A stretch of 64,000 nucleotides of DNA from an uncultured Chlamydiae bacterium. GTDB lineage: Bacteria; Chlamydiota; Chlamydiia; Chlamydiales; JAJFMB01. A program made the position numbers and the translations under genes. Every line of letters starts with the position of its first letter. The first letter of the stretch is position 1. A model generated the notes under the pieces. It was given only the letters and a program-made list of their open reading frames with translations, had not been told where the DNA came from and ran no database searches. Shown piece by piece: positions 1,350 to 19,258 of the stretch. The stretch lies in the NCBI GenBank assembly GCA_963696295.1, contig CAVOJR010000001.1:2428467-2492466 (forward strand). Direction: 5' to 3'.

Positions 1350-1921
1350 TTTTGTCTGCGAAGGTAACAGATCGGCAAGAAGCCATGCGATATCAACAAC
1401 AGGAATTTGGTAAGTCTGGACGATTTCTTCTAGCGAATCTCCATAACATCTTGCCGATCTTTAGAAACTTCACCCAATCATCGAGCGAAGTGATAGAAGA
1501 TATGTAGGGCATATACAAAATCGGAGGATTAAACCCAACTTGGCAAAGCAATACGGAAAGGATGAGCAGATCGGTTCTGCCTTGACGTGTTCAAATTCTA
1601 ATTCTTGGTAAAGAACGGCTATCAATCGCAGTTTATCCTCACCGGTGACCGTGACGATTTTTTTGTTAAAATCGACCTTCAATTTACTCGATATTTCTCG
1701 TTTTTCTAAAGGGGCATACCATAGAGTCGTCTGGGAATTTTCCATATAGGGCCTGACGTTAGCGGACCGCGGGAGCTTTGACCCCTGAACTATGCTAATT
1801 GATCACCTTGAAAACGTAGCCGCTGCTTATTAGAGCCTCCACCACATCAGAAGTAGATGACAAGATAATGGCTGTAACTATTTTTACAAAAACAGAAAAA
1901 CATTGAAATTTTTGTTTATTG

Positions 1922-1950
1922 TTGACAATTAATTTAGGCTTAAATAAAAT
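1922..1950 (+). promoter_or_regulatory. Sigma-70-like promoter (TTGACA-17 nt-TAAAAT) about 72 nt upstream of the 2022 ORF
   Basis: TTGACA at 1922-1927, a 17-nt spacer, then TAAAAT at 1945-1950, all within an AT-rich intergenic region. Confidence 0.4.
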
Positions 1951-2021
1951 ATTCGCAAAAATAAGCAACAATAAAACCAAATTTTGAAGTTGTTTGTGTA
2001 TAACTTACTTGAGGAAAAATC

Positions 2022-2687
2022 ATGAATATTGGCGCAGTAGTAGCATACATGGGTATGATCAATCAGAGCGAAGTGAATCGCTCGGTAAAATTGTCTGAAG
2101 TAAAATGGCCTGCGGCAATAGGCTCTGTTGTCAGCGTAGCCGCTATAGCTTTTAATTCTATTAGCTTAGCCTTTCTAGGAAGTGGATTGCTAACCTATGC
2201 ATACTGTAAGAAAAAACAAGCTGATGAACATCTCGCTTTTTTGCAAGGAGCCAGAAACCTCGTCCAGGCCCAAGTAAAAGGAAATCCCAAACCTTACCAC
2301 ACACATTCAACAACGACGTATGGTGACTTAAAAATTTCAGTTATGTCTGGCTGCCTAACACAACAGACCACCGATGCCCTTGGATACACAATGCTCGGCG
2401 TAGAAGAGGAGCAATGCAGTGTATTAACCGAAAACAACCATAATTTAATCTTAGGTAAAGATAGCGGCAAATTAGACAATTACTACAAGGACTTTAAAGC
2501 AATTCTTACAGAAGCCAAAAAACAAGGCGCTCAAACTGTCGCTTTAAGAATTGATACTAGAGTTGCCAACGTCGTCCTCAAGAATAGAAAAGAATTCGAA
2601 GAGAAGATCGCGGCCGATTTTTCCGACTCCTATAAAGCAGTGAACCTCGTTTTCCCCGCCAACTATCCTGTCAATGTGAATTCTTAA
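2022..2687 (+). CDS. Hypothetical membrane protein with a long bilobed hydrophobic segment (Inc-like)
   Basis: An ATG with the promoter just upstream opens a 221-aa ORF. Residues ~30-65 (AAIGSVVSVAAIAFNSISLAFLGSGLLTYAY) form a ~35-aa hydrophobic stretch of the type seen in chlamydial inclusion-membrane proteins. The remainder is hydrophilic. Confidence 0.5.
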   Translation: MNIGAVVAYMGMINQSEVNRSVKLSEVKWPAAIGSVVSVAAIAFNSISLAFLGSGLLTYAYCKKKQADEHLAFLQGARNLVQAQVKGNPKPYHTHSTTTYGDLKISVMSGCLTQQTTDALGYTMLGVEEEQCSVLTENNHNLILGKDSGKLDNYYKDFKAILTEAKKQGAQTVALRIDTRVANVVLKNRKEFEEKIAADFSDSYKAVNLVFPANYPVNVNS

Positions 2688-3030
2688 GGTGAGAAAGGCC
2701 TTAGGGATCGTATAAAAATAACTTTGACATTTCTCGAGGGAAAAATCGATTCATCTCGAGTGTAATTTTCCTCAGAGGTATTCCACTGATACTCTCTTCG
2801 GAAAATTCCTCTCGATCAAACGATCTATGTCCCCCATAAAATCAGGCTTCCTTTGTAAAGAAATTCTTAACATTTCTTATGTCTGAATCCGGAAATTTCT
2901 ACTTTGCTGTTACATTTAATATATAAATCTTCTTAATTATTCTTTAATGTGAAAGATATTATTTGAAAAATTATTTATATTAAAACTTTAATTATTGTAT
3001 AATTATAATTATTAAGCTAGGTGGTATATT

Positions 3031-3936
3031 ATGGACTACAATACTTGTGACCTTAATGCTGCAAAACTAAGCTATTACCATCCCGCTGAACCGTCGGAAA
3101 ATACCAACCCCAAAACACTATTGTTCATTCACGGAATGGGCAGTTCAAAAGAAACGTGGAAAAATGTTATCGAACCCCTAAAAGATCAATATGATATTTA
3201 TGCTATTGATTTGCGAGGTTATGGGGAAACACCTCTTGGTCAAGTTGGGTTTACAGTGGATTACACTCTAGATCAACTCTCTGCTGATATTCACAAATTT
3301 GTCACAGAAAATCATTTAAATAACGTTGTAGTGGTTGGCCACTCCGCGGGCGCTATTGTTTCAATTGCTTATGCCAGTCAACATCCAGACGAAGTAAAAG
3401 GCCTCATTATAGAAGATATGGATTTAGAAATGCCGGCAAGCGAGCCAAAATTAACTGATAGTCAGATAAAACAATTAACAGGAGATCTATCGACATCGGA
3501 AACCTATACAAGTGTAGATTTAGCCAAAACGAAAATAGATGCTCTTCAGATTGCTGAGGGCGATAAAACTACCTTCAAAACGGGTGAAATTAAAAAAACA
3601 CTTGATGGAAAAAAATATGTGATCACCGCTCGCCCCTATACCGATCGTTTAGTGAGCAACGAGTGGAAAAAGGCGAGCGCTGCTTCGAAAAGCAAAAGCA
3701 AAGAAAATTTTAAGACTCTAAAAGAAAAAAATATTCCCGTTATGCTTTTAAAGGCTAGGCCTAAAATTGTTACGGACAAAGATAAATCCCACGTGTCGGA
3801 TGAAGGACTTAAAAATATGAAAATACTGAATCCGAAAATGGAAGTAATTGAAATTGAGGATTCCACACATAACATCCATAAATCTAAACCAGATGCTTTT
3901 GTCAAAAATGTGAGAGAATTTATTGACAAAGGATAG
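3031..3936 (+). CDS. Alpha/beta-fold hydrolase (serine hydrolase, G-H-S-A-G nucleophile elbow)
   Basis: An RBS (AGGTGG) precedes the ATG. LLFIHGMGSSKETW is an oxyanion/HG-type motif and VVVGHSAGAIV is the nucleophile elbow. There is a C-terminal His (DSTHNIH). The ORF is 301 aa. Confidence 0.75.
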   Translation: MDYNTCDLNAAKLSYYHPAEPSENTNPKTLLFIHGMGSSKETWKNVIEPLKDQYDIYAIDLRGYGETPLGQVGFTVDYTLDQLSADIHKFVTENHLNNVVVVGHSAGAIVSIAYASQHPDEVKGLIIEDMDLEMPASEPKLTDSQIKQLTGDLSTSETYTSVDLAKTKIDALQIAEGDKTTFKTGEIKKTLDGKKYVITARPYTDRLVSNEWKKASAASKSKSKENFKTLKEKNIPVMLLKARPKIVTDKDKSHVSDEGLKNMKILNPKMEVIEIEDSTHNIHKSKPDAFVKNVREFIDKG

Positions 3937-4351
3937 GAAGAATAAGGGTGTAATAACCTTTCATTACCCAAAGATATTATTTTTGTCTCAAGAAAAACGA
4001 GGCAGAAAATGATCAAAAAACAAGACTCTTGGTGTGGCAAATGACCAAGAGTGCGATCTTTAAATTTTTGAACCTCTTCATGGAAATTTTTAGTGGATAA
4101 TTTTAGCATCAAAGCTCCCGCGGTTCGCCGATCGTAAGTGGGCTAGTATTAACTCATACAAGTCGGGCTTTAGATATTGTGGTCTTGGTTGAAGTCATAA
4201 TAAATGAACAGCGGTCGCCAAACGAATTTTAAAAGGGCTTATGAGAAAGGGGCAAGGTCACGACCTTTGTCAAGGTAAAATTGCCATTTTATCAGATATT
4301 TCCAGCATTTAAAAGAAGAGCGTCCCGCAATCTCTTGAAAAATATTATACG

Positions 4352-5041
4352 TTGATTTTAAATCACTTATATGTTAAAATGATTTTTATTAAATTCGAGG
4401 TTTTTATGACTTTTTTTATTGCAAATCTGTCAAATACGGGTCAGCCATTGTTTACAACACTTAGAAATTTTATAGGTTTTCTTGGCATTCGCTGCGTAAC
4501 CTTAGTCTCCTCATCCCCCCTAGCAAAGATTTCATTAGTGGCAACCGCAGCCTTTGGATTCTATAAATTATATGAACATTATAATAATCCCTTTAATGTT
4601 ACTAGGCGTGCTGGTAAAGATTTGATTGATTCTTGGGTCAATGCTCATAGAGCTGTAATGGATGCATCGAAATCTTGTGAAAAGAATGACTTTAACGCTT
4701 CTCATGAACTGATTCAGAGTATGTTGGTAAAAATCAATACTGCTGTAGCTTCAGCTAAAAAATATACTGCATCACGCGATTTAATGCTTAAAATAGCTAT
4801 TAACAACAAAGAAGCAAATGATTTAAAAGAAGGTCTGAAAAACGGTATAGCTCCTCAGCTGGCCGTTGTTGAAATTTATGACCAGATGGCTAAAAGCATT
4901 GAAAAAAATCCAAAAGCTAAGGACGCGAATACTTCTAGAGAAGCTTTTTTAATGGGTATGGCTGAATTCTTTGTTCCTAACCAAGAAATTATTAAAGCCG
5001 CCTGTGTGCATGTGGTCCCCAAAATTAGGACAGCATCATAG
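4352..5041 (+). CDS. Hypothetical protein with an N-terminal hydrophobic segment (possible Inc-like or secreted)
   Basis: The ORF is 229 aa and AT-rich. Residues ~40-75 are hydrophobic (FLGIRCVTLVSSSPLAKISLVATAAFGFY). No recognisable catalytic motif. The true start may be the internal Met at MTFFIANL. Confidence 0.4.
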   Translation: MILNHLYVKMIFIKFEVFMTFFIANLSNTGQPLFTTLRNFIGFLGIRCVTLVSSSPLAKISLVATAAFGFYKLYEHYNNPFNVTRRAGKDLIDSWVNAHRAVMDASKSCEKNDFNASHELIQSMLVKINTAVASAKKYTASRDLMLKIAINNKEANDLKEGLKNGIAPQLAVVEIYDQMAKSIEKNPKAKDANTSREAFLMGMAEFFVPNQEIIKAACVHVVPKIRTAS

Positions 5042-5217
5042 ACTTAGGATGGAAAAATCGATCAGTTTCGGTCCTTCCATGGAACTTTAGCTGAATTAAG
5101 TTTTTTACTCCTCCAATTTACGTGACTTTTTCAAGTTAATACGTACAGGCCCCTTGAGGCTCTTTGCCGTTGTATCCTTGGCATTTGAAAATTAAGGCCT
5201 GCTTCTGCACCACCCCG

Positions 5218-5616
5218 TTAGCCATCGAAAATGGGCTTTATCCCTAGAAACTCTACCTTCGAAAAATAGGGGAGGAGCTCTTTTTGCACCCCGTCGATGT
5301 AGGTTTGGTCCCATTTATTCATGTGAGGGCCGTTCTCGGCGAGGACAAAGAAGCCGGTCTTGCCAATCTGCTCGTCCGCGAGGCTGGGCCAACAGCAAAA
5401 CTGATTTTGCCGGTAATGCTGCAGGTTGAGAAAATAGGCGCGCTGCCCATTGCCGTAGAAGCTCAATAGGCTGCTCATTTGGTACCGGTCGCTGAAGAGA
5501 AAATTTTCCTTGGGATCATAACCCATTTCCGTGACTAACTTACCCATGAGATTCCACCCCATATAGTGACGGAAGATATTGATTTTATAGGGGATGAAAA
5601 AGGATAGGAAGAACAA
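5218..5616 (-). pseudogene. Gene fragment of unknown family lacking a start codon (possibly the C-terminal part of a membrane glycosyltransferase-like protein)
   Basis: The 132-aa frame has no ATG; the track's M is a TTG, and the frame opens immediately after a stop. It is GC-richer than its neighbours. It abuts the 22-bp motif at 5597-5620. Confidence 0.3.
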
Positions 5617-5640
5617 GCAGCAGCTTCGGGAAAGTACTTA

Positions 5641-6457
5641 GTGCAGCAAGGCGCTCCGTTCGATGCAGAAAACAACTCTTTAGGGACACCTTTAAACTTT
5701 GCCGCTTTTGAAGGGAATTTAGATGGAGTAAAATGGCTTCTTTCTAAAAAGGCCAATCTCGATCGAGGATTCCAAAACGTCACTCCCCTTGCACAAGCGA
5801 TCCTGGGAGAAAAGTATGCAGTTGCTAAATACCTCGTGCAAAATGGCGCGAGCCTTAAGCCGCTTAATGACGGTGTATATTCTCCTCTTTATTTGATAGG
5901 AGGTAAGAAAGAAACTCCAGAGAGGGACGAAATTATCCAGCTGATGATCTCTAAGGGCGCTCAGTTAACAGAAAATGAAAAAGGCATGGAGGTTGGCAAG
6001 TTAATCGATTCTAAAAAATCTTTCAAGACACTGTGCAAAGAGGCGACCTTTACGCTGTAATGGGTTAATGCAGGGCAATACTGCTATGAGCGCCTTTGGC
6101 AAGACACCTGCTATGGTAGCTTTGCAAGCACTTTGCAATCGCTCACTATTTAATGGAAAAAGGCGCTAAGCTTAATGAGGAATGCGGGTTTCAGTACAAG
6201 CAGGGAATTTAGATTCATCCTCAGGAAGTGCCACTCTTTCCTATCAAGTGGAGAGGGGTTCAGCAGTCGAGAAGACTAGGGCAGTCAAAAAGAATTGGGA
6301 TGCAGACCCTGAGGGAGAGTTGGCAAGATTTCAAAATGAAAAGTCCGAACTTTATGATAGGACAGTAAAGTTTTTTAGGATTAAATCGGAGATCATATCA
6401 TTCTGTGCGTATACATGGCTGAAGATTCAGCCACGAGTTCTCTATTTTCGTCAATAG
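5641..6457 (+). pseudogene. Ankyrin-repeat protein gene, 5'-truncated and frameshifted
   Basis: ORF 5641-6060 encodes at least 3 ankyrin repeats (GTPLNFAAFEGNLDGVKWLLSKKANLD; TPLAQAILGEKYAVAKYLVQNGASL) but starts inside a repeat right after a stop. Downstream, ankyrin-like sequence continues in other frames (GKTPAMVALQ...; LLEKGAKLNE), which implies frameshifts. The second ORF, 6182-6457, is unrelated in sequence. Confidence 0.6.
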
Positions 6458-6480: not shown

Positions 6481-7500
6481 TCAGAAGCTAAAACAGCCCG
6501 TCAAGGTTAAACCGTGAAGATAAAGATCCCCCGGTCCTGCATTTATTCCAGTGGTTTCCAAGTCATTTAACAGGCGCAGCATATTTTGACCCCAAAGATA
6601 GTTGATGTCATAAGTTGCAGCCAGATGGATATGATACCGATTGCAAGCAAGCCAAGTGCCCCAGCCAAACCCAAAATTAGCTTCTGCCATTGGCCGTACG
6701 CAGTCATAATCGCGTATTTCGTACGAGATCCCATTTTCAATTGCGTTTATAGCAGTCTCTGAGTGAGAGACATTGGTAAATCTTGTAAATAATAAGCTGG
6801 AACCTAACTTTCCTTGAATGGAAAAGCCCCTTCCTAAAAAGAGCTTCCCATCGATACCGCATCTTGGCCCGATGCCCCATGATTTCAGGTTATTGTACGA
6901 ATGCAAAATATCTGTTATGGCTATATTGAGCACTCCAATGGCATCAATATTGAGGGACTGCTCTATCCAAGAGGCCCTAAATCCAATGAATGGAGAGGCT
7001 GAAAAGCAATTCGATTGGAATGTACTCGATGCTTCAACATCCAGCCAATCTAATCCAAGATGCCATTTGGATGCTAGTTTCGAAGCGGCTATGTTTTGCT
7101 GTTGGGGAGAGACCAGGAAAAACCAATTGGTAAATAAGATGCCTCCTGTGGCAACGTTAGACTTTATCCCCTGCTTTGAGAAGTTTGTGCTGTTGTGAAA
7201 ACGGGTATAAGTTGCGCGAACCATCCAGGGATCACAAGGAGAAATTGCGCCGACCCCAATCTTAAATCCGGAGCCAAAGTCAAAATTTTGAAAAATAACC
7301 TCTCTTTTTTGTGCAAAAGGAAAAACCGCATTCACATTGGGAAGATAAGACGCCGGTGTGGCCAAGTCCAATCCCTCTTCTCCGCTTTGCCAATAAAGGT
7401 AAGAGATATCTCCGAATAGCCGCCAGATATCTGAGCGGGGAGCAAGCTGTGCGCTCAAAGTGAAAACAGAAAAAGTGGTGATCAAGAGAAGATATTTCAT
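6481..7500 (-). CDS. Outer-membrane beta-barrel protein (porin candidate)
   Basis: There is a signal peptide (MKYLLLITTFSVFTLSAQLA) and a C-terminal aromatic (..TGCFSF-stop) typical of OMPs. Amphipathic strands alternate throughout, with many Gly/aromatic residues. The track ORF 6481-7548 has 16 extra N-terminal codons that are probably not translated. Confidence 0.6.
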   Translation of the reverse strand: MKYLLLITTFSVFTLSAQLAPRSDIWRLFGDISYLYWQSGEEGLDLATPASYLPNVNAVFPFAQKREVIFQNFDFGSGFKIGVGAISPCDPWMVRATYTRFHNSTNFSKQGIKSNVATGGILFTNWFFLVSPQQQNIAASKLASKWHLGLDWLDVEASSTFQSNCFSASPFIGFRASWIEQSLNIDAIGVLNIAITDILHSYNNLKSWGIGPRCGIDGKLFLGRGFSIQGKLGSSLLFTRFTNVSHSETAINAIENGISYEIRDYDCVRPMAEANFGFGWGTWLACNRYHIHLAATYDINYLWGQNMLRLLNDLETTGINAGPGDLYLHGLTLTGCFSF

Positions 7501-7611
7501 CATAACGCTGTTCCTTGTGTATTTCATTTGTCTAAAAATAAATAGCAAAAAAAAATAAATTAATCAAGATTTATCTTGTCAATTTTTAGACAAATTTGTT
7601 ACATTTCAGAT

Positions 7612-9771: not shown

Positions 9772-10000
9772 GTGAAACTCGATCAGGAAGTCTCCGAGTC
9801 ACATCAAGCAAGCTTTAAGGGGAGAGTTGCTCTCGCAGCTCTTAAGGAGAACAAGACCCTTTCCGATTTGTCTCAGGAATTTAAAATTTACCCGGCTCAG
9901 ATTACAAAGTGGAAGTCTCAAGCCGTTCAAAATATTTCACAAATATTTGAGGATGGGCGCAAGAAAAGATCAACTCCTGATGTGGATATAGAGGCATTTA
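9772..10000 (+). mobile_element. IS3-family transposase OrfA (HTH) remnant; no intact orfB
   Basis: RVALAALKENKTLSDLSQEFKIYPAQITKWKSQAVQ matches the conserved IS3 OrfA HTH region (..VALEALKGEKTLSELA..HPNQI..WKKQ..). The frame opens just after a stop (GTG start only) and degenerates after ~75 codons. No DDE domain follows. Confidence 0.6.
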
Positions 10001-10614
10001 TATGCCTTGTTGGCGAAAGGTGGCCCTGTGCCCAGCGATCATGGCTGGAAAGTATATTCGATTCTCATTTTACTTTTTGACATGCCTATCAACAGCAAAA
10101 GATTTCGCGCGCACGGGTGCTGTTTTAGGAAGCTTCGCGTGGTAAAAAGCCATATTGGTTCTGAAGTTGAGAAGGGGGGAAAGAGACTTCGTCCCTCTCC
10201 CTATAAAAAAGCTTTCCCATTTGAATGTTTGAAAAATTTGTCTTGTAAAATAAATACAGGACGTACTAGACTATCGGCAGTCCCAGGGCTGCCACTACAA
10301 AATGAAGATAAAGAGACAAAAGGTAATTGTCTTAATCAGGCAAGACTGATTGTCTACACAAAAAAACGGAGAAGACTTAGCACAGAAAATTACTTATTCC
10401 CCCGGTTTTTCTGTCCAATATTTGTCGGCAGCGCACTTTAACAAAAAAAGACTCTGCAAATCTGTACACGATGGCTTCCGAAGCTTCATCAGGGTATCAC
10501 AAAAGGATACGAAGTTAAGCATGGGAACGTGTTCTTTATAAAAAATTAATAATTGTTTGATATAAGATTTCAATTTACGGTCGTATTACAAATAAACATT
10601 TAAGGATTAAAAAT

Positions 10615-11712
10615 ATGAATATTTCCAACGATAATTTAACGATAAAACTTTTCATTATTGAAAAAAATAAAATTGATGATAAAATTTTAGAAACACGCCG
10701 TTTCAACATCGCTTCTTCAGTAACCTATGAGATTTTCAAAAATATGCTTAATGTGTACTGCAAGGATGCAAAAGTTTCGGATAAATTCGTTTTCAAATAC
10801 ATCGATAGTGAAAATGACGAAATCACGGTCGATAGGGAAGAAGATTTTAAGATGATGATGGAATATCGAAAAACAAAAAACACTATTCAAGCCAAAATTT
10901 ATACTTTTCCACTTACTCGTGATCTTCCTAATAGTATGCCTATTGCAGCAACAACAGTGAAGCCTTCAATTAATTCCAAATCTAATACCTCTCCTTCAGC
11001 TCCAATACCTTGCGCTGTTGCCAACAAAGCAGATCCAATTCCTTTTGAGAAAAAAAACACCCAAGAAGAAGGCAGTATTGCCAATGGAAATACCAAGCAA
11101 TACAATTGCGTCATCATCAAAAACAGCGTCGAGACTCCCCCAGAAACACTGTTGCCAAATCAGCAATTCAAACACACTTGGCGTGTCAAAAATCAGTGGA
11201 CTCGTTCTTGGGACCCCTCCTGTCATCTTGTGTTTGTTGGCGGCAAGAATGGCAAGCAAATAATACCGGATCTTATCTTGAAGAAGAATATTTTTGATCA
11301 TAAAATTTCTCCGCAAGAAGAGGTGGATGTGAGTGTAGATTGTGTTGCTCCTGGCCAAGAGGGCAATTATTTCGGTTGCTGGAAATTAATATCTGAAGAT
11401 GGTCATACATTTGGTCCAATGCTTCAAATAACAGTCAAAGTCAGCAACTCGAATTCAAATATTACTCCCACATTTATTGAACAACATCGCGATGTGTGGA
11501 TCGATGAGCTCAAAAGGTTGAGCGATTTAGGATTTAGAGATAAAAACAATGATAGAATGTACCGCGATTTGCTTTTCCAAAATGATGGAAAAATCGAGAA
11601 TGTCATTGCTAAATTGCGCCAGGAGAATGTAGTAAATAAAATTAAGGAAAACGATTTTAAAAGTAGAGTTCGCAATGCTAAAGGATTCCTAAAAAAGGAA
11701 GATGGAATATAA
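10615..11712 (+). CDS. NBR1-like protein: N-terminal PB1 domain, NBR1-type FW (four-tryptophan) domain, C-terminal UBA-like domain
   Basis: PB1: IKLFII..K..RRF...FKYIDSENDEITVDREEDFKMMMEY closely parallels the NBR1 PB1 OPCA region (IKYLDEENEEVSINSQGEYEEALKMA). FW: FKHTWRVKNQWTRSWDPSCHLVFVGGKNG...SPQEEVDVSVDCVAPGQEGNYFGCWKLISEDGHTFGPMLQITVKV. UBA-like: LKRLSDLGFRDKNNDRMYRDLLFQNDGKIENVIAKL. Length is 365 aa. Confidence 0.75.
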   Translation: MNISNDNLTIKLFIIEKNKIDDKILETRRFNIASSVTYEIFKNMLNVYCKDAKVSDKFVFKYIDSENDEITVDREEDFKMMMEYRKTKNTIQAKIYTFPLTRDLPNSMPIAATTVKPSINSKSNTSPSAPIPCAVANKADPIPFEKKNTQEEGSIANGNTKQYNCVIIKNSVETPPETLLPNQQFKHTWRVKNQWTRSWDPSCHLVFVGGKNGKQIIPDLILKKNIFDHKISPQEEVDVSVDCVAPGQEGNYFGCWKLISEDGHTFGPMLQITVKVSNSNSNITPTFIEQHRDVWIDELKRLSDLGFRDKNNDRMYRDLLFQNDGKIENVIAKLRQENVVNKIKENDFKSRVRNAKGFLKKEDGI

Positions 11713-11854
11713 TCGCGAACTCAAATCAAACGAGAATCCAAACAGCCAATGCAAATGGGGGCATCGAAGATCTAGACTATTTGCTGAATACGGATATAGT
11801 GGGAATGTCGTCCACAATTTGCTCATGGAAAACAAAGGATAGGAAGAACAAGCA

Positions 11855-11895
11855 GGGAAGCGACCCCTTAAGGGAAAGGTCGCTTCCCTGTTTGG
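11855..11895 (+). terminator. Rho-independent-terminator-like hairpin (11-bp GC-rich stem, 12-nt loop) followed by TGTTT
   Basis: GGGAAGCGACC-ccttaagggaaa-GGTCGCTTCCC tgtttgg is a perfect inverted repeat lying downstream of the 10615-11712 gene. Confidence 0.4.
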
Positions 11896-12049
11896 CCAAG
11901 CCGTCAAGTTTTGGTCGGATATGTCTCAACTTTCACAAAAACTGTAGAGATTGGGCTTTCATTGAAAGATATGTGTATTAATATTTTTTACATCAGTAAC
12001 AGCTTTGAGTTTAAACTCAGGTGAAAATTATCGTCTTTTCCTTGTCAGC

Positions 12050-12395
12050 CCGGGGAAGGGGTAGGGGCCGCAATGCTCATGCCAAAGCACATCGCTTTGA
12101 CTTTGGGCGCAAATGAAAAAGTCCCTTTTTTGCTGCTCATTGAAGGCAAGCAGCCACATTCCATCGGCCGTATAGACCGGCTGCCCTAATGCCAAAGAAG
12201 AGATGTCGAGAAGTTCTTGCGTTTCTTGCAGCGCTTGGCTTGTTCGCCGGCATACGGATGGACAAGGCCGGCCGCGATCCCGGAGGCTCCGCCTCCAATG
12301 CCTTTAGCATCTTAGAGAGTGATGTGATGGCGGCCGGCTAGGTGCCATGCAGTGGCAAGACCCGCAAAGCCAGCTCCGACAATAGCGATTTTCAT
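12050..12395 (-). pseudogene. FAD-dependent oxidoreductase N-terminal fragment (Rossmann GxGxxG) interrupted by stops
   Basis: The reverse strand from 12395 reads MKIAIVGAGFAGLATAWHLAGRHHITL*..GIGGGASGIAAGLVHPYAGEQAKR. That is a dinucleotide-binding motif followed by in-frame stops and frameshifts. It is GC-rich relative to its flanks. Confidence 0.55.
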
Positions 12396-12536
12396 AAAAA
12401 TTAGGGTGTTTGCTCAAAAATTACGACTCTATAAGTCAATAAAAAATAGAAATGTGGATTTTATTAACAATTTGTTTAGTTGACAAATAAATAAATGCGT
12501 GTATAATTACATTTTAATTAAAATTGAGTTTTTTTT

Positions 12537-13490
12537 GTGTCAAGCGTAAATAATTATGAAATTAAAATGGGAAGTTATTTTGAAGATGACCGGTTGCTCG
12601 TTTCGAGTTTAAACAAACCAGTCGATATACGCTGTTATACGGAGAAAAATCTATATCAAAAAAATAAAGTATTAGTTTTACGTATATTGGGTAAAATTGA
12701 AAGTGTTACAATCGGTGATCGTTCTATTTATCTGAATAAAAATAATGTGGAAGAATTTTTTCCAGATGAAACTTGCGACATTAAGGAAATAATAAGTAAA
12801 TATTTGAATAAAGCGCCAGCCAAGGAAGAAGATCTGACAGTCCCAAACGCTCCACTTTTCAATATTATTTCACATAATGTCGTACCCAATGAAGGCCATG
12901 CTTTTGAGAACATTAAATTGTCTCAAAATGATACATTGACCCTTTACGGAACTTTGTCCTCAAGCCATATATCAGATCTTTCAAAATCCCCCCAATACGC
13001 CAAAGGTTCAGAGAATTTTCGCCTTATTAAGGCTGCTGAAGTTAAAGTAAAATTAGATAAAGATCCAAATAATGCCGCATTGTTGAGAGCCTATCAATAT
13101 GCTCTTCAAGTAGAAAGGTTACAACTGCCGATTTTGGCTGGAATATCGGGAACTTTAGATCAATCTACCGCTATGGCCGGCCTGGTTGGAATCGGATTGG
13201 ACAAGAAGCAGGAGCTTAAGGATATTCGCCTGGCTTTTCTTGGGTTTATGGTAGACTCTAGGGATCATTCTGTGCATGAAATTCTGCAATCCTCTCGCAG
13301 CTACGGGATGGCATATACGCCAGGACCTGGGTTTGAGAAGGATATCTATAACTCATTATTTGCCAATCAAGTTAAGAATTATTTAAAAGGTACCCTCAAA
13401 TCTAAAATGCCAGATAAGTGCCTTTCTAAAGAATTTGTCAAGGAATTGCAGATGAAAGTTATGCATGAGCAAAATGCTTTTGAAGATTGA
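12537..13490 (+). CDS. Hypothetical protein (317 aa), AT-rich, no recognised domain
   Basis: A TTGACA-16-TATAAT promoter at 12481-12508 lies just upstream. The ORF uses a non-ATG (GTG) start in the track, with an internal Met 10 codons in. It is hydrophilic and may be an effector. Confidence 0.45.
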   Translation: MSSVNNYEIKMGSYFEDDRLLVSSLNKPVDIRCYTEKNLYQKNKVLVLRILGKIESVTIGDRSIYLNKNNVEEFFPDETCDIKEIISKYLNKAPAKEEDLTVPNAPLFNIISHNVVPNEGHAFENIKLSQNDTLTLYGTLSSSHISDLSKSPQYAKGSENFRLIKAAEVKVKLDKDPNNAALLRAYQYALQVERLQLPILAGISGTLDQSTAMAGLVGIGLDKKQELKDIRLAFLGFMVDSRDHSVHEILQSSRSYGMAYTPGPGFEKDIYNSLFANQVKNYLKGTLKSKMPDKCLSKEFVKELQMKVMHEQNAFED

Positions 13491-13564
13491 ACGAGGCCGA
13501 AACTCGCCGAAGAGGTGAATAAGGCTATTTTTTATGTTATACCATTATAAAGGAAGTAAATAAT

Positions 13565-14905
13565 ATGTCTTTTGATAATAATACTAAGTTAATAATAACT
13601 AATTCAAGTGTATCTAATAGTAATTTTATAAAATTAGATGAGACTAATAATTTAAATAGTACTCAATCAAAAACTGATGATGCATTTAATGCCAAGAATG
13701 AGTCAACAAAGGCAAATCGCGAAGCAGCCCTTCACAAGGTACAAACTCCTAACATCAGAAATGGCACAATCCGGATAAACATAAATACACTTACGCAAGC
13801 AGTAGAAGATCTCTCTATAGCCAAGTCAAAAAAGGAAGAGTATGCAGAGCGAGTGGAAAATGTAAGAAAATTCTTCTCTTCGCAAACAACATTAACTAGC
13901 GAGATGTTTGATGAGGCATTAAAATTAAAAGCAGAGTTGTCGGATTTACAACGCAGTGATTCCGATTATAAAAAAATGCTAAAATCCCTTTTCAAGCCCT
14001 CTTTGACTAATTTAGAGCATTTGCAATTCCCTAGCGGACTTTCTTTAGCTGAGATGCAAAGTTTTGTTTTAAAGACGACCGATAAGCTTGCTGGTTTGGA
14101 TTTTTCTCAGGTCTCATTACCTGATGATGACCCCGATAGCATTGAAGACTTTTTCATCGATATTTCGGATCATTGCAATCTGACTTCTTTGAATTTAGAC
14201 AATCAAAATGAAATTGATCCCGATACCCTAGTGGAGATGACGGAAAATCTCCCTAATCTTGTCTATCTCAATTTGAATCATTGGGATAACGAACTCTCTA
14301 CAGATCATATTATTGAATTTTCAAGTAATTTGCCGAATCTTGAAATGCTCTATATCAAACATTTCGACGCCAGCAAGATATCCATTGATGTTTTAAAACC
14401 ATTATCAGAAAATTGCTTGAAACTACAAGAACTTTGCATTGATTTCGAAGACTCAGTAACAAAAACAGAACTGGACTACTTGAGTAATCTTCCTCTTGAA
14501 GTATTAGATTTGAACAACTACGAAAATATCACTTCCGTTGATATTGTTAAATTGGTTCATGATCACCCCAATCTGATAGAACTTTCTTTAGCAGGATGCC
14601 CGAATATCGATGAAAATGCTCTTAAAGCTATTGCTACTCTAAGAAATCTTAAAAAACTCGATTTGACCATCGCTACTATTAAAGATCCTGATGGGCTTAT
14701 TAATGTTGTCAAAGCCTGCAAAGAAAATCTAAACGAACTTATTCTCTTGGATAGCAAGGTGAAGGGTTCTAAGGATATCGTAATGCAATTAAAAGAAATA
14801 AATCCAAATTTATATATAGAGGAACCTCTTGCATCAGAATACGGAGAAACAGATGACGTAGATGAAGATATGGAGGAAGACGTAAAGTTTGAGGACGCAA
14901 ATTAA
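13565..14905 (+). CDS. Leucine-rich-repeat protein with Asn/Ser-rich N-terminal region and acidic C-terminal tail
   Basis: C-terminal LRRs: LPNLVYLNLNHWDN, LPNLEMLYIKHF, LSNLPLEVLDLNNYENITS, HPNLIELSLAGCPNIDE, LRNLKKLDLT. The N-terminus is low-complexity (NSSVSNSNFIKLDETNNLNST) and the tail is acidic (ETDDVDEDMEEDVKFED). Confidence 0.7.
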   Translation: MSFDNNTKLIITNSSVSNSNFIKLDETNNLNSTQSKTDDAFNAKNESTKANREAALHKVQTPNIRNGTIRININTLTQAVEDLSIAKSKKEEYAERVENVRKFFSSQTTLTSEMFDEALKLKAELSDLQRSDSDYKKMLKSLFKPSLTNLEHLQFPSGLSLAEMQSFVLKTTDKLAGLDFSQVSLPDDDPDSIEDFFIDISDHCNLTSLNLDNQNEIDPDTLVEMTENLPNLVYLNLNHWDNELSTDHIIEFSSNLPNLEMLYIKHFDASKISIDVLKPLSENCLKLQELCIDFEDSVTKTELDYLSNLPLEVLDLNNYENITSVDIVKLVHDHPNLIELSLAGCPNIDENALKAIATLRNLKKLDLTIATIKDPDGLINVVKACKENLNELILLDSKVKGSKDIVMQLKEINPNLYIEEPLASEYGETDDVDEDMEEDVKFEDAN

Positions 14906-14975
14906 ATAGACCCTCACGCAAAAGTTGTCCCAGGCTCTTGAGGTCTTGGGACAACTTTCCCTAGCTAAGAAATAA

Positions 14976-15230
14976 TTGTTTTTCTCATTTTTGGGAAACA
15001 TTCTTAATAAAATAAACGCCGCACAAAAGTCATCATATGTTCCTATTGTGCGGAGTTGCCGTGGAAGATGTTTTTGTTGGAAGAAAAGAAGAACTATCCC
15101 TACTTTCTGCTCTAAATCTTTAAGTTTAGTGGTTTTTAGAGGGAGAAGAAGGATAGGTAAAAGTCGCTTAATTGAGGGATTCTCTGAAAAAAATTCCCGT
15201 CAATGGAAAAGTATCCATTGAAACGCTTAA
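14976..15230 (+). pseudogene. N-terminal fragment of an archaeal-type P-loop ATPase (Arch_ATPase/DUF234-like), frameshifted
   Basis: VVFRGRRRIGKSRLIEGF resembles the G-R-R-R-x-G-K-[TS] Walker A region of that family. The upstream frame is broken and there is no continuation downstream. Confidence 0.3.
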
Positions 15231-15257
15231 AACGCAATTCGGAGACCAGTTGAGGGT

Positions 15258-15515
15258 TTACCAGGACAAAAGAGGGGAACCTCTTTGTGCAGCGCCCCGC
15301 GCGCGCCGAATATGCGCAAGGTAATGGGTTTTGGCTAGCTCGGGCATATTTTTACAGAAAGTAAGCTGGATGTCTAACGCTTTCTGATGAAGCTTTTTGG
15401 CTTCTACGAGATTTTTTTGAGCTTTTTGAATATCGCCAAGGCCATTATAGCTTCTTGCCGCATCGGGGTGCTTTTCTCCACAGGCTCTTTGAGTGTTCCG
15501 ATTGGAGCGGCACAC
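15258..15515 (-). pseudogene. TPR-repeat (kinesin-light-chain-type TPR_10/12) protein remnant
   Basis: GEKHPDAARSYNGLGDIQKAQKNLVEAKKLHQKALDI matches the HPD[VT]A.S.NNLA.....G.Y.EA..L...AL.I TPR consensus. It is only 85 aa and lacks a proper start or context. Confidence 0.45.
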
Positions 15516-16126
15516 CCGTTAACCTGGAACCGGAAAAATGCGCAGGACTTCATTTCTATTCCATACACCATTTACCTGAGAATCTCATCCCTTACATTCA
15601 AAAGTCGCTCCATGAGATTTATCTCCACAAGAACTGCTACTCTGAGGAAGGATGGTGAGCGGGATTGCTTTTAAAGCAATAGATTTAGTCATTCGATAAA
15701 TCCATTGGGCCGATTCTTCAGAGGAAAGCAGCTCGTTTTTCGGCGCAATTTCCACCCTGTCAACGCCAGCCTGAAATCCTAAATTTTTTAAGTTTCTTGT
15801 TTTTTCGGTTCGACAGGGGACTGGGTTTAAGGGGCCGGAAGGAAATGCGCCGTGAAAGAACCGCCGCTCCCTTCTCGGTTTCTGAAAATTTGATAGCTGT
15901 CTTGATTGATTTGACAGCGGATATTTACAACTGCATCGTTATTCATAAAAAAACCTGCATAATTTGATTATAATCAAAGTCTAGTAAATCGGGTAGTACA
16001 AGAAAAGGCCTCATATTATCTTTATGAAGTCTTAAAAATATTAATAATTTGTTAACATAGTTAATAAAATTTGACTAAGTTTTTAGTAAAAAGTATAATT
16101 AAAATAAAACATATAAGGTGGTTAAT

Positions 16127-18604
16127 ATGGCAAACGTTGCTAACTTTACTAATAATTTTGATGTAAACATTATCGCGATCCATTGCGATGAATTAGCGAA
16201 ATTCAATGATCCGATTACAAAAAATGAACTAACGACAGAACAAAGGTTAATGTTAGGTCAAATCCTTCAAGATGCCTGGAAGGGAGGTAACCCTCAAACT
16301 CGAACTTCAGATGAATTCAAACAATTTATTGGAAAAGAATATGAGCAAATGGTTCGCAATAATGTTGTGGTTATTACAGACAGACATATCGTCTATGGCG
16401 GAACGACACTGACAAAAGTGAATGCTGCGAGAAATAGGTTTGAACAAATTGGAACAGCATCGCCGATTACTCGCAGCCAGCTGCTAGCCCCAAAAAGCCA
16501 TACAACAGAAGAGAGGGAGACTTTAGCACCTCAACCTTGGACCCTTGGGAAAAATAATCCGTTGATGCAAGGATCACCCGTTGAAATCAAACAAGCGGTA
16601 ACAAAATACCATGATGAGGCTCCAAAGAAAGTCTATGCACCCCTACTTCCGAAAATCTCAAAGTTTAGTGAAGATTTTTACAAATCTAAGAATCCTAAAG
16701 ATGTTGATAGAAAAATATTAGATATTGAGAAACAGGAAAAAATTATTATTCACGATATGCGCAATCCTAATGGGGAGTGGAAAGCTAATGAAAGGAACGG
16801 CGTTATCAATTATCAAATGTGGCCCATGAGAATGCGTGAATTTTTCGGTGTTTATCAAGATACCTATCCTATGAAACTTAGGGATATAAACGCAGACAAC
16901 CCGCAAAAGTTTGTAAAGGTCAGAGAGCATATTAAAGCAGAAATGAAAGAGTTGATCGCTCAGCACATCGCGGAGCCGAAAACGAGAGAGAAGACCCTGG
17001 AGATGCTAGAAAAATTTATGGACAGATATGAAGGTTGTCATTTTGATCTCGCTAATGGTTTAAGCGCCGTTGAAATTTATACTTTTTACCGCACTATCGG
17101 CATGTATATGATTTGGCAAACTGTCACCGACCATAGAACGATGCCGGGTTCCATCCATGATATCAACCACTCCCACGCCAATGACACCCACGCTGATGAA
17201 TGTGCAGATGGATTGCATGAAGAGGATAAAGCGCCGGCGCTTGATTTTCTCATGACATTTACCAATCTCTTTCACGATATGGCCTATATCGAGCCGGCTG
17301 CAGTGAATCATGAAAGTTGGTTTCATGTGGCAGGGGATCACCCCATGCACTCTGCGCTCAGTCTTTACCAGAATCGCAATTTTTTTGAAAAATTCATTCC
17401 TGCGAAGCTCTTAGAGCTTTCGGAGGATACGATCGCCACCCATGGACTGCCGACAGGGCGCGGCGCCACCGTCGGTGAATTTAACCACGAAAAAGATGAG
17501 TTTGGCATCAACAGACGCCATTTCATGCATGTCTTCAGAGCCTGTGACGAATGCGCGACAAGTTATAAAGAGAAATCATGCCGTGTGATGAAAGTGCCCA
17601 AGGTTCTGTCCAACATCTTGCGCACCCAAATCTATCGCACCCACCTCGCTGGCAAAAATGAGGATAGATTTGCAGAACAAAATAACTTATACCATATCGA
17701 GCGCATCAATAATGAAGTGAAGACATCGATCAAGCAAGCTGTCTTTTCTGAGGGGGTAATGAGCACTTCAGAATTTTCCGAAGTGCAGGCAGAGGCCATA
17801 AATTCTGCTATTGAACAACAATATAGTGCGACGACACAAAAGACCGCGCTGGAGCAGATCGGCGGTGACCTCAGCCACCTAGAATTAGAGTATACGGGGG
17901 CATTTCTTGGAGATTCCCAGAAGTACCGGATTAAAGCATTCATGAACCTTTGCCACACTACCGGGATGATAGTCGGCTTAAGCCCTGCGGGTGTTAAAGA
18001 CACGCCCGTCTTTTGGAACTCGATTGGCAAATTCTACAAGGATGTGGGGGGCGATACTAAGGCTTTGGAGGCCAACATGCGGCAAATGCGGCGCGATATC
18101 ATCGAAGGTAATGCACCCGCCCCTGTTGTCTGCAGAGGCGAGTTTGGGGACGTCGTCGTAGAGCCGGAGTTTGTTGAGTTGGATAAGGAACTAAGCGAAA
18201 TTTTCCACTTTCTTGAGTACCACTCCCTCCTGCCCGCCATTGGAGACATGGAGTTCGACCTCACGCAGGAAGCGAACAAATTAGCGGCAAAGCCTAACGA
18301 CCTCATTAAAGCAAAGCCTCCTCATGCCGACGGGGCTCCGATTACTATTGTAAACCTGATTGAGGGTTCATTCGAGAAAAATATCACAAATCATATGCGG
18401 AGGATTGGATTTAAGGATCAGGAAAAGATTGATAAATTGAATGAAGTCAAAGAAAAGTATTTGACTATATTAGACACATCCCCTCGATTGACTGGCAAGC
18501 AAGCTAGTGATTTACTTACAAATTATATGAAAGAAATTCGCACAGTGGATGTCATGACCAAAGAGGAAGCGGAGTTTGTCCGTTCTGGGAAAATAACCAA
18601 ATAG
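16127..18604 (+). CDS. Large hypothetical protein (about 825 aa) with a His/Asp-rich segment reminiscent of an HD-domain metal site
   Basis: A TTGACT-17-TATAAT promoter at 16071-16099 and an AAGGTGG RBS precede the ATG at 16127 (the track begins at an upstream GTG at 16118). The segment is INHSHANDTHADECADGLHEED...LFHDMAYIE (H..H..~30 aa..HD). No other recognised domain. Confidence 0.5.
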   Translation: MANVANFTNNFDVNIIAIHCDELAKFNDPITKNELTTEQRLMLGQILQDAWKGGNPQTRTSDEFKQFIGKEYEQMVRNNVVVITDRHIVYGGTTLTKVNAARNRFEQIGTASPITRSQLLAPKSHTTEERETLAPQPWTLGKNNPLMQGSPVEIKQAVTKYHDEAPKKVYAPLLPKISKFSEDFYKSKNPKDVDRKILDIEKQEKIIIHDMRNPNGEWKANERNGVINYQMWPMRMREFFGVYQDTYPMKLRDINADNPQKFVKVREHIKAEMKELIAQHIAEPKTREKTLEMLEKFMDRYEGCHFDLANGLSAVEIYTFYRTIGMYMIWQTVTDHRTMPGSIHDINHSHANDTHADECADGLHEEDKAPALDFLMTFTNLFHDMAYIEPAAVNHESWFHVAGDHPMHSALSLYQNRNFFEKFIPAKLLELSEDTIATHGLPTGRGATVGEFNHEKDEFGINRRHFMHVFRACDECATSYKEKSCRVMKVPKVLSNILRTQIYRTHLAGKNEDRFAEQNNLYHIERINNEVKTSIKQAVFSEGVMSTSEFSEVQAEAINSAIEQQYSATTQKTALEQIGGDLSHLELEYTGAFLGDSQKYRIKAFMNLCHTTGMIVGLSPAGVKDTPVFWNSIGKFYKDVGGDTKALEANMRQMRRDIIEGNAPAPVVCRGEFGDVVVEPEFVELDKELSEIFHFLEYHSLLPAIGDMEFDLTQEANKLAAKPNDLIKAKPPHADGAPITIVNLIEGSFEKNITNHMRRIGFKDQEKIDKLNEVKEKYLTILDTSPRLTGKQASDLLTNYMKEIRTVDVMTKEEAEFVRSGKITK

Positions 18605-18607
18605 TTG

Positions 18608-19141
18608 CTATTTGTACCAGTCAGGATAAAAATCTTCGCATACGATGACGAAGGAAGGGGTAAGTGAAGATAAACGTTTTTCTTGGTTTTTAACGTGATT
18701 TTCAATCAAACGCTTGGCAATTTCCCATCTCGCTTGCGCATCTTTGGACTCTACGGTTTCATTGTGCAGATTCTTTTGCTTTAATGAATCGATCTCAATA
18801 TCTAACGCCTTAATATATAGAGCTGTAATTGTTTTGAAGAGACCATTTGTAAAACCGGCGAGTTTGGCGTAATAGGCGAAATATTCCTTTTCGTTGCTCC
18901 TTTCAGGGATTTTTGTAGAAGTTATCTCATCCGCTTGAGTTGTGATGAGTGTGATTCTTTGCTGCCAGTCGTCAGGGTATTCCTTTTTCCAGCAGTCTAT
19001 GAGAAAAGCCAGTGAGCCGAGTACAAGTTTTTGAAATCTACTATCGACTTCCTCTTTAATATCAGGGATCCGATAAAGAGATGTTTGCAACGAGTTCAAC
19101 ATCTTATACTCTTCAGCATATCTTGTTGTTTCCATAATCAT
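18608..19141 (-). CDS. Hypothetical protein (177 aa)
   Basis: The ORF is intact. It has a decayed tandem paralogous copy immediately upstream. Confidence 0.5.
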   Translation of the reverse strand: MIMETTRYAEEYKMLNSLQTSLYRIPDIKEEVDSRFQKLVLGSLAFLIDCWKKEYPDDWQQRITLITTQADEITSTKIPERSNEKEYFAYYAKLAGFTNGLFKTITALYIKALDIEIDSLKQKNLHNETVESKDAQARWEIAKRLIENHVKNQEKRLSSLTPSFVIVCEDFYPDWYK

Positions 19142-19258
19142 CTCCTAATTAATAAAGATATACTATACTTAAAAATGTATTAAGTGTCAAAATGAATTTC
19201 GGAAAATATGATAATTAAAATTTTATATATATGAAACAAGCAAGCGACTAAATTCACA

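Follow-up and report, generated by a model that had tools for sequence, protein, structure and literature searches.

What is a gene with the domain layout of the eukaryotic selective-autophagy receptor NBR1 doing in a bacterial chromosome? The question is raised by an open reading frame (ORF) in a stretch of 64,000 nucleotides from an uncultured Chlamydiae bacterium (GenBank assembly GCA_963696295.1, contig CAVOJR010000001.1, positions 2,428,467 to 2,492,466), which was analysed as a whole and is referred to here as the window. The ORF (10615 to 11712, plus strand, ATG start, 365 amino acids (aa)) is present exactly as it was described in an earlier reading made from the letters alone. This sequence-only reading had recognized a PB1, an FW and a UBA domain in the encoded protein and had proposed a candidate effector acting on the autophagy or ubiquitin machinery of a host. 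Its structural interpretation is supported by our analysis, since significant profile or structural matches were obtained for all three domains and the FW domain groups with eukaryotic proteins of the same architecture. Judged from sequence, the functional claim is plausible. We use the name NBR1-like, and not NBR1, because two defining features of NBR1, the ZZ finger and the LC3-interacting region (LIR), were not found.

The gene and its flanking signals are organized as listed below, with the source of each assignment in brackets (HMM, hidden Markov model; AF2, AlphaFold2; pLDDT, predicted local distance difference test).

10602 to 10606, plus strand: Shine-Dalgarno-like AAGGA, 8 nt 5' of the ATG (read from the sequence).
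10615 to 11712, plus strand: complete coding sequence, PB1 - linker - FW - linker - UBA - basic tail (ORF list).
10633 to 10905, plus strand: PB1 domain, predicted type AB, aa 7-97, with K11, R28-R29 and the OPCA residues Y62/D64/E66/D68/D77 (Pfam, HMM, AF2, Foldseek).
10906 to 11106, plus strand: disordered linker rich in P/S/T/N, aa 98-164, without ZZ finger (pLDDT 22-37).
11107 to 11448, plus strand: FW domain with NBR1-like Ig fold, aa 165-278 (Pfam, PDB phmmer, Foldseek, HMM).
11449 to 11490, plus strand: short disordered linker, aa 279-292, without canonical LIR (pLDDT <50).
11491 to 11622, plus strand: UBA domain of NBR1 type, aa 293-336, with an LGF loop replacing MGF and a 3-residue loop insertion (family profile, AF2 helices).
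11623 to 11709, plus strand: C-terminal tail rich in Lys/Glu/Asn, aa 337-365, a helix extension in the model (AF2 model, sequence).
11853 to 11890, no strand given: GC-rich hairpin of 16 bp, ~140 nt past the stop codon, possible terminator (terminator scan).

The N-terminus had been claimed to carry a PB1 domain with an OPCA signature, and the claim holds. The FKYIDSENDEITVDREEDFKMMMEY motif is found at aa 60-84 of the translation, and the Pfam PB1 model matches aa 27-86 with 36.6 bits (cut-off 23.6, E=4.5e-9), rising to 39.9 bits in a scan of the N-terminus by itself. In the AF2 model, aa 7-97 adopt the order strand-strand-helix-strand-strand-helix-strand with a pLDDT of 77-89. The best Foldseek match of this module in the PDB is the PB1 domain of NBR1 (2bkf, E=1.9e-5, target-normalised template-modelling (TM) score 0.72), with further matches to the p62 PB1 filament (6tgy) and to the PB1 domains of aPKC, Par6 and Cdc24, while the profile of the PB1 family aligns to the filament-forming PB1 domain of Arabidopsis NBR1 (6tgn). 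Polymerisation of PB1 domains requires a type-B lysine in strand beta1 (AtNBR1 K11, p62 K7), a double-arginine finger in beta2 (AtNBR1 R19-R20, p62 R21-R22) and the acidic residues of the OPCA motif (AtNBR1 D60/D62/D64/D73) (PMC6978347, Jakobi et al., 2020). K11, R28-R29 and D64/E66/D68/D77 of the NBR1-like protein align to AtNBR1 K11, R19-R20 and D60/D62/D64/D73, respectively, and these interface residues are mostly invariant or nearly so across the family of PB1-FW-UBA proteins described below. On paper, the domain is of type AB and competent for polymerisation. It is followed by a linker without a ZZ finger: Pfam gives no ZZ match in the protein even at E<=10, and aa 98-164 contain one cysteine and no histidine, which leaves no room for such a finger.

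In the central module, Pfam N_BRCA1_IG (FW) covers aa 178-276 with 77.7 bits (cut-off 28, E=1.2e-21), and the motif stretch quoted in the sequence-only reading sits at aa 185-267. Both Pfam matches, PB1 and FW, are far above chance level. A phmmer search of the PDB returns ILRUN (6vhi, 1.2e-10), human NBR1 (4ole, 3.9e-5) and Chaetomium Nbr1 (7vqo, 2e-3). The segment aa 165-278 is all-beta in the AF2 model and is superimposed by Foldseek on ILRUN 6vhi (target-normalised TM 0.83, root-mean-square deviation 2.2 Å) and on NBR1 4ole (TM 0.80). The FW assignment is thereby borne out, yet the four-tryptophan pattern attributed to it is only partly present: three of the four canonical tryptophans are retained (W189, W199, W256), the third position being V/G within 'FVGG', as in ILRUN, and W195 is an additional, non-canonical tryptophan. 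Comparison of the model with NBR1 structures, one of the checks proposed for this locus, was successful for both PB1 and FW. The proposed Pfam check gave a divided result, with PB1 and FW above their gathering cut-offs and the UBA below recognition on the single sequence.

The C-terminal module was recognized through its family. The LSDLGFRD...MYRDLLFQNDGKIENVIAKL stretch is located at aa 302-334. A UBA family profile that includes the NBR1-like protein has the human NBR1 UBA as its best PDB match (2mgw, 5.6e-10), followed by the UBA domains of ubiquilin and Dsk2. To avoid circularity, the profile was rebuilt without the query and controlled with 5000 shuffled sequences: the C-terminus still reaches 26.7 bits, and 22.4 bits when the closest relative, P0011, is left out as well, compared to ~11 bits for the best of the shuffles. 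AF2 predicts helices at 296-304, 310-322 and from 327 onward (pLDDT 68-79), and G306, F307, L320, G325 and L334, nearly invariant in the PB1-FW-UBA family, are all retained. Because 40 residues are too short for a whole-chain Foldseek search, the fold was assigned from the profile and the three predicted helices. The sequence of aa ~293-336 is that of a real UBA of the NBR1 type, in agreement with what had been suggested, and the NBR1 C-terminal UBA model of Pfam also matches the majority of its relatives (see below). A phmmer search of the PDB with the C-terminus had returned aldolase and IF3 matches only, which we judged to be due to chance. It is speculative whether the tail that follows (aa 337-365) serves as a secretion signal; by eye, the N-terminus has no Sec signal peptide.

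A canonical LIR was not encountered in a regular-expression scan: all occurrences of [WFY]xx[LIV] fall within folded domains or on their borders, and none with an acidic context lies in a disordered region. By comparison, 12 of 34 eukaryotic relatives have an acidic W-x-x-L motif just N-terminal to the UBA, which the NBR1-like protein lacks. The description of the protein as having the domain logic of NBR1 minus ZZ and LIR is therefore accurate, given the three modules, the missing ZZ match and the outcome of the motif scan.

Within the window, these modules are confined to a single gene. HMMs for PB1, FW and UBA, built without the query and run on 1116 six-frame segments of the window, match only the ORF at 10615-11712 (FW 97, PB1 27 and UBA 23 bits; next best <=8), and score 26 (PB1), 96 (FW) and 22 bits (UBA) on the protein itself; no paralogue of the gene is present in the 64 kb. 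A single-sequence AlphaFold model was poor (pLDDT 39). With an alignment of nine sequences (A4), AF2 reached a mean pLDDT of 66.9 and produced three folded modules, with aa 100-162 and 281-292 forming the disordered stretches between them. Searching the BFVD collection of folds with this model yielded generic Ig-like matches only.

Where does such a protein come from? Relatives were sought with a word-indexed homologue search of 5.8 billion proteins and with HMMER, run exhaustively on 1.84 billion cluster representatives. In the former, the sole match of the protein is the protein itself; the family alignment as query retrieves eight proteins, and P0011 retrieves only P0011. The HMMER search gave 3086 matches at E<=1e-3, the majority FW-only. 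The best 150 hits (159 proteins scanned) comprise two main architectures, ~35 PB1-FW-UBA(-UBA) proteins and ~117 multi-FW proteins, and none of the latter carries a PB1 or UBA domain. The multi-FW relatives are bacterial, with P0005 annotated as an Anaerolineae bacterium and the P0006 cluster residing on contigs of 300-588 kb. The PB1-FW-UBA proteins resemble the chlamydial one along its length: phmmer alignments run in one stretch across its aa 35-338, and members of a ~320-430 aa subset align in a single stretch from PB1 to about residue 336 (P0052, P0063, P0126, P0135), others from FW to the C-terminus. An alignment of 21 sequences (A1) is colinear over the three modules; Pfam detects N_BRCA1_IG in 21/21 of its members, PB1 in 19/21, UBA_NBR1_C (PF24932), at the aligned position, in 13/21 and a ZZ finger in 0/21.

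The PB1-FW-UBA relatives are eukaryotic and at least partly from protists, as follows from their transcript-like contigs, a heterolobosean transcript and their homopolymer tracts. Of 17 that were looked up, nearly all lie on contigs of 0.9-2.5 kb that extend scarcely beyond the coding sequence, the exceptions being P0011 (a contig of 5.8 kb) and P0074, listed in EukProt as a transcript from Heterolobosea sp. BB2 (EP01027, GEZU01006916). Inspected contigs carry a 5' leader and, at the 3' end, an A-rich stretch that starts a poly(A) tail, two samples yielded PB1-FW-UBA contigs of equal size (1242 bp), and many of the proteins contain poly-His, poly-Ser or poly-Pro tracts. At the 5' ends of contigs L085, L086 and L087, two PB1-FW-UBA genes (P0135, P0155) have common leader blocks, GCTTACTGATACACAC ... 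TGGAAAACAGAAAC, which may represent a 5' untranslated region conserved between orthologous genes of related species; a spliced leader is another possibility.

The closest relative, P0011 (361 aa, PB1-FW-UBA-UBA), shares 33% identity overall and 38% over FW-UBA. Its contig L082 (JGI 3300050206, Ga0502761_0040577, positions 1-5818) has a GC content of 34% and encodes eight short genes, densely packed on both strands, including an AlkB-like 2OG oxygenase and a weak Snf7/ESCRT-III-like match; its intergenic regions contain palindromes of A-run/ATGCAT/T-run that could form hairpins. The contig is not bacterial and looks like that of a giant virus or a compact AT-rich eukaryote. The mimivirus-type promoter motif AAAATTGA is not present on it, and a scan of viral collections with its AlkB-like gene gave no match. 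Scans of genome collections and metagenomes for relatives of the chlamydial protein and P0011 found none, and tblastn against phages returned nothing. The viral collections returned just ordinary single-FW proteins on high-GC, phage-like contigs beside XRE genes. On two of the contigs (L083, 4283-5546; L084, 4351-5747), lipoprotein-like single-FW genes lie directly 3' of a gene with an XRE-type helix-turn-helix (HTH), echoing the XRE-FW association of bacteria.

A phylogeny of the FW domain, also proposed beforehand, places the chlamydial domain among the eukaryotic PB1-FW-UBA proteins and away from ordinary bacterial FW proteins. At the domain level its nine best matches are all PB1-FW-UBA proteins, led by P0011 with 79 bits and continuing from 70 to 61, whereas no multi-FW domain exceeds 60 bits; median scores are 52.7 bits for the former group and 39 bits for the latter. 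Neighbour joining of 151 FW domains (200 bootstraps) makes it sister to P0011 in 121/200 replicates and puts it within a split consisting of at least 90% PB1-FW-UBA proteins in 115/200. From its sequence, the domain thus appears to belong with the eukaryotic group. The protein is only 25-38% identical to every known relative and its ORF is intact over 365 codons. Transfer of a ZZ-less NBR1-like gene from a eukaryote to a bacterium, where it has been kept intact in the chromosome, is well supported.

That the gene is encoded in a bacterial genome is supported by its Shine-Dalgarno site, its bacterial neighbours and the 3.3 Mb contig (3,298,190 bp) to which the window belongs. The AAGGA sequence in front of the ATG indicates, as a sequence signal, translation initiation of the bacterial type. 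The gene is without introns, and its GC content of 36% is close to that of its surroundings (38%), with up to 55-60% elsewhere in the window. An identical 365-aa protein is encoded by contig L001 of the independent Logan assembly (run ERR11563597), which is 99.96% identical to the window over 9.08 kb (9793-18872). The hairpin downstream of the gene occurs once in the window; the terminator scan assigned it to the minus strand, and its T-run on the plus strand is weak (TTTGG). The second copy of a 29-nt direct repeat (GGA..AAAGGATAGGAAGAACAAGCAG, 90% identical, at 5592-5620 and 11827-11855) adjoins this hairpin.

What could the protein do? We lean towards a role as decoy receptor: an NBR1-like protein without ZZ and LIR, whose gene was taken over from a eukaryote, or from some entity that infects eukaryotes and shares the host, and which acts in the host cell. 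Following delivery into that cell, its UBA would bind the ubiquitin chains laid by the host on the bacterium, its vacuole or aggregates. The type-AB PB1 would either self-polymerise or insert into host PB1 filaments of the p62/NBR1 type, and the FW domain would bind some host partner. Because no ATG8-binding LIR is recognisable, the cargo would not be coupled to the phagophore; ubiquitinated cargo and receptor filaments would be occupied, and the decoy would blunt xenophagy or aggrephagy. The RNI-type LRR proteins and the AvrRxo1/XopAJ-like domain encoded in the window, effector-like company for the gene, speak for this role. Observation covers the domains with their interface residues, the affinity to eukaryotic proteins and the bacterial setting, whereas we infer secretion, binding of ubiquitin and PB1 partners and an effect on autophagy. 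Likewise, an intracellular symbiont as the bearer and a secreted effector as the product are inferred, and the genomic context fits a symbiont.

Several points weigh against this role as decoy receptor. Confidence in the structural model is intermediate (mean pLDDT 67). The UBA has no direct Pfam match at E<=10, neither with the whole protein nor with C-terminal fragments. The placement in the FW tree is moderately supported (58-61% bootstrap), in agreement with the score ranking and the three-module colinearity. The missing LIR is the result of a motif scan of the sequence, and non-canonical LIRs exist. The 64-kb window contains no secretion-system genes. Finally, the protein is a singleton, for no second bacterial copy was found among either the 5.8 billion or the 1.84 billion proteins, and conservation within bacteria cannot be shown for that reason. 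Against the decoy receptor, four other explanations can be put forward: an adaptor unrelated to a block of autophagy, a passenger gene, a function within the bacterium and an artefact of assembly. None is favoured by the data.

The adaptor survives best, and we grant it a minor yet real chance. Here, the protein would be secreted without blocking autophagy: its PB1 would recruit aPKC, MEKK/MEK5, Par6 or TFG-like proteins, or its UBA would gather ubiquitinated material at the compartment of the symbiont, resulting in the hijacking of signalling or the capture of nutrients and possibly even promoting selective autophagy. Among solved structures, the PB1 family profile indeed matches aPKC iota/zeta and TFG best, ahead of NBR1 and p62, a type-AB PB1 can pair with either partner type (PMC6978347), and FW domains bind cargo as varied as Ams1, MAP1B and TAX1BP1 (PMC9233695, PMC9582228). 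Nevertheless, the three-module layout and the structural matches of UBA and PB1 point specifically to NBR1, and the lack of a canonical LIR argues against a receptor that promotes autophagy.

The sequence immediately upstream of the gene brings a second explanation into consideration.

9772 to 10080, plus strand: remnant of an IS3-family transposase OrfA, ~530 bp 5' of the NBR1-like gene (ORF translation, tblastn).

This remnant has at most 43% identity to IS3/ISRj2-like transposases of plasmids (tblastn), and degenerate sequence continues to ~10600. The Logan contig breaks at the remnant (9793), and since it breaks exactly there, the IS3 element is suggested to be repeated elsewhere in the genome. 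A eukaryotic gene may have landed in the chromosome, perhaps by uptake of DNA associated with this insertion sequence (IS), and may now be an unused, neutral and decaying passenger. The IS3 remnant with its ~500 bp of degenerate sequence, other apparently split genes in the window and the singleton status without bacterial orthologues would all fit a passenger. We consider it unlikely, as 365 codons have stayed intact at 25-38% identity, which implies a long divergence during which the frame and key residues of fold and interface were kept; the well-placed Shine-Dalgarno site and a GC content like that of the surroundings are likewise at odds with decay.

A function within the bacterium is considerably less probable still. 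Isolated FW domains do occur in bacteria, as had been stated for this locus, in the form of multi-FW and XRE-FW proteins (PMC9233695); FW is in fact widespread there, both in XRE regulators and in multi-FW proteins, the latter forming most of the best 150 hits. Alongside such a domain, PB1 and UBA folds could have been re-used, for example in a ubiquitin-like or defence system. The closest FW domains are nonetheless those of the eukaryotic PB1-FW-UBA family, the multi-FW hits are devoid of PB1 and UBA, and the layout is colinear with eukaryotic mRNAs across the full length. A bacterial ubiquitin-like system was rejected as context, with no E1, E2, JAB or other ubiquitin-like system genes nearby. 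Least credible of all is a misjoin of host, protist or giant-virus DNA to a bacterial contig: although L001 holds the gene together with orphan and leucine-rich repeat (LRR) genes and no unmistakably bacterial one, and P0011 resides on a non-bacterial contig, the gene lies intronless and with a Shine-Dalgarno site in a 3.3 Mb contig, lacks the A/T-run palindromes of L082 and the poly-His and poly-Ser tracts of its eukaryotic relatives, is too divergent from P0011 (33-38% identity) to be copied contaminating DNA and has a Legionella-type outer membrane protein gene 3 kb upstream, while repeats at both ends of L001, the IS scar and a tandem duplication, explain its breaks.

The tandem duplication (18595-19687) consists of units of ~600-660 bp, 85-100% identical, over a 177-aa ORF (18608-19141, minus strand), inside which L001 ends. 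In the wider neighbourhood of the NBR1-like gene, on its upstream side, a pectate-lyase-fold protein and the Legionella-type major outer membrane protein (6481-7548) are encoded. Downstream follow orphan genes, an LRR protein, a MarR-GNAT fusion, a block of carbohydrate and phosphoenolpyruvate (PEP) metabolism, an AvrRxo1/XopAJ-like protein and UvrA-like genes. The LRR protein two genes downstream (13565-14905, plus strand) shows a weak LRR_4 match; another, at 291-1349 (plus strand), belongs to the RNI/F-box-associated type of eukaryotes (LRR_6, 61 bits). A protein of 870 aa (38640-41252, plus strand) contains a zeta-toxin domain of the AvrRxo1/XopAJ type (NCBIfam NF041405, E=1.3e-30, below the family cut-off) and is, by its sequence, a further candidate for a host-targeting effector. 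A coiled-coil protein of 720 aa (55015-57177, plus strand) has weak SMC/Rad50-like matches and a faint match to the Dot/Icm effector LegC2/C7 (E=0.005), on which no interpretation can be based. Large ORFs, 572-1691 aa in length and without any Pfam match above cut-off, lie at 16118-18604, 21134-23863, 23981-27037, 46367-51442 and 52431-54149; those scanned against NCBIfam have no match, nor do the three searched against the PDB. NCBIfam assigned no taxon-specific family to the neighbouring genes, and rRNA and tRNA genes are absent from the 64 kb.

The GC content of the window swings strongly, with 33% at 22-26 kb, 36-41% near the orphan and eukaryote-like genes, and 50-60% both at 28-36 kb, where the metabolic block lies, and at 58-62 kb, around the UvrA genes. 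The PGM gene shares 66-75% identity with bacterial metagenome-assembled genomes across many phyla, three from Parachlamydiaceae among them. The GC swings, in combination with a PGM-phosphorylase block 66-75% identical to very diverse phyla, suggest a mosaic of horizontally acquired DNA. A gene similar to PEP synthase/PPDK is split into abutting ORFs (29121-30305 and 30305-31516, plus strand), and fragments of a UvrA-like paralogue (60002-62912, minus strand) adjoin an intact UvrA-like gene (57248-59881). These may be pseudogenes, of the kind expected in a genome undergoing reduction. As far as gene content can tell, the LRR and AvrRxo1-like proteins, the richness in orphans and the split genes are consistent with a host-associated bacterium, without proving it.

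Taken one step further than a decoy receptor, the protein would mimic a selective-autophagy receptor, as the first from a bacterium to do so. A protist's symbiont or pathogen would have taken an NBR1-like gene from its host, lost the ATG8-binding element and now inject a product that co-polymerises with filaments of the NBR1/p62 type, coats ubiquitinated bacterial compartments and poisons receptor condensates, so that the bacterium escapes xenophagy. We put this extended scenario forward tentatively, as a possibility short of probable. A further hint would come from the contig of P0011, giant-virus-like or compact and AT-rich: the gene may be passed around between intracellular parasites that live together in amoebae. 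In the full-text literature searched, no bacterial PB1-FW-UBA protein is reported, and likewise no PB1 domain among eukaryotic-like effectors; a 2026 preprint on Legionellales symbionts proved to be unrelated.

If the protein acts in this way, receptor mimicry would be a different strategy from that of the known anti-autophagy effectors, which are mostly enzymes: it would combine a polymerising PB1, a cargo-binding FW and a ubiquitin-binding UBA with no hook for ATG8. It would then also offer a natural dominant-negative tool for the assembly of NBR1/p62 condensates, and imply that xenophagy via NBR1-like receptors matters in protist hosts. In addition, attention would be drawn to an uncharacterised family of ZZ-less NBR1-like proteins in protists, which bears on NBR1 as the ancestral receptor (PMC9582228). 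Even if the protein is not secreted, the locus represents a clear transfer of a multi-domain gene from a eukaryote to a bacterium.

How does the NBR1-like protein compare to known systems? Ankyrin, F-box, U-box and LRR are known examples of eukaryotic domains that have been taken over by intracellular bacteria. Eukaryotic-like effectors and other microbial proteins that touch autophagy receptors, including Legionella RavZ, the SidE family and Rv1468c of M. tuberculosis (with a UBA), are mostly enzymes or single-domain binders. The concept is alike, with a horizontally acquired eukaryotic domain turned against host ubiquitin or autophagy, and the window also contains LRR and AvrRxo1-like genes. 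To our knowledge, and in the literature searched, none of these effectors copies the multi-domain layout of an autophagy receptor. Eukaryotic-like proteins in bacteria being already known, what is new here is a whole receptor scaffold in a bacterium and not a single repeat or enzyme domain.

With the bacterial FW proteins (XRE-FW, lipoprotein-like single-FW and multi-FW), the protein shares the Ig-like fold of FW and a location in prokaryotic genomes (PMC9233695). They combine FW with an HTH, a lipoprotein signal or FW repeats and have no PB1 or UBA, whereas here a single FW is enclosed between PB1 and UBA. ILRUN (C6orf106) provides the best FW match, both by single sequence and by structure (6vhi, 27% identity), and has 'VGG' at the third tryptophan position in common with the chlamydial protein. 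In ILRUN, however, a UBA-like domain at the N-terminus precedes FW and PB1 is absent, in contrast to the N-terminal PB1 and C-terminal NBR1-type UBA found here. The lysine, double-arginine finger and OPCA acidic residues underlying the filaments of p62/SQSTM1 and plant NBR1 are all present, so that polymerisation is predicted. Unlike the chlamydial protein, p62 has ZZ, LIR and KIR (Keap1-interacting region) motifs and no FW.

Similar to NBR1, the protein has PB1, FW and a C-terminal UBA in the same order. NBR1 is organized as PB1-ZZ-CC-FW-LIR-UBA, and its ZZ finger, coiled coil (CC) and canonical LIR have no counterpart. Human NBR1 is also much longer, 966 aa compared to 365 aa. Its PB1 is of type A only, while the predicted type AB of the chlamydial PB1 corresponds to plant NBR1 and p62. 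The closest comparison is with the ZZ-less PB1-FW-UBA proteins of protists, which share the module order, colinearity over the full length (~320-430 aa), the type-AB residues of PB1, the ILRUN-like 'FVG' and the NBR1-type UBA. Identity to these proteins is 20-29% (33-38% for P0011), and their linkers are Lys/Glu-rich with poly-Ser and poly-His, compared to a Pro/Ser/Asn linker here. The LGF loop with its 3-residue insertion, the Shine-Dalgarno site and the bacterial chromosome set the NBR1-like protein apart. It fits the protist PB1-FW-UBA family in all but its bacterial location.

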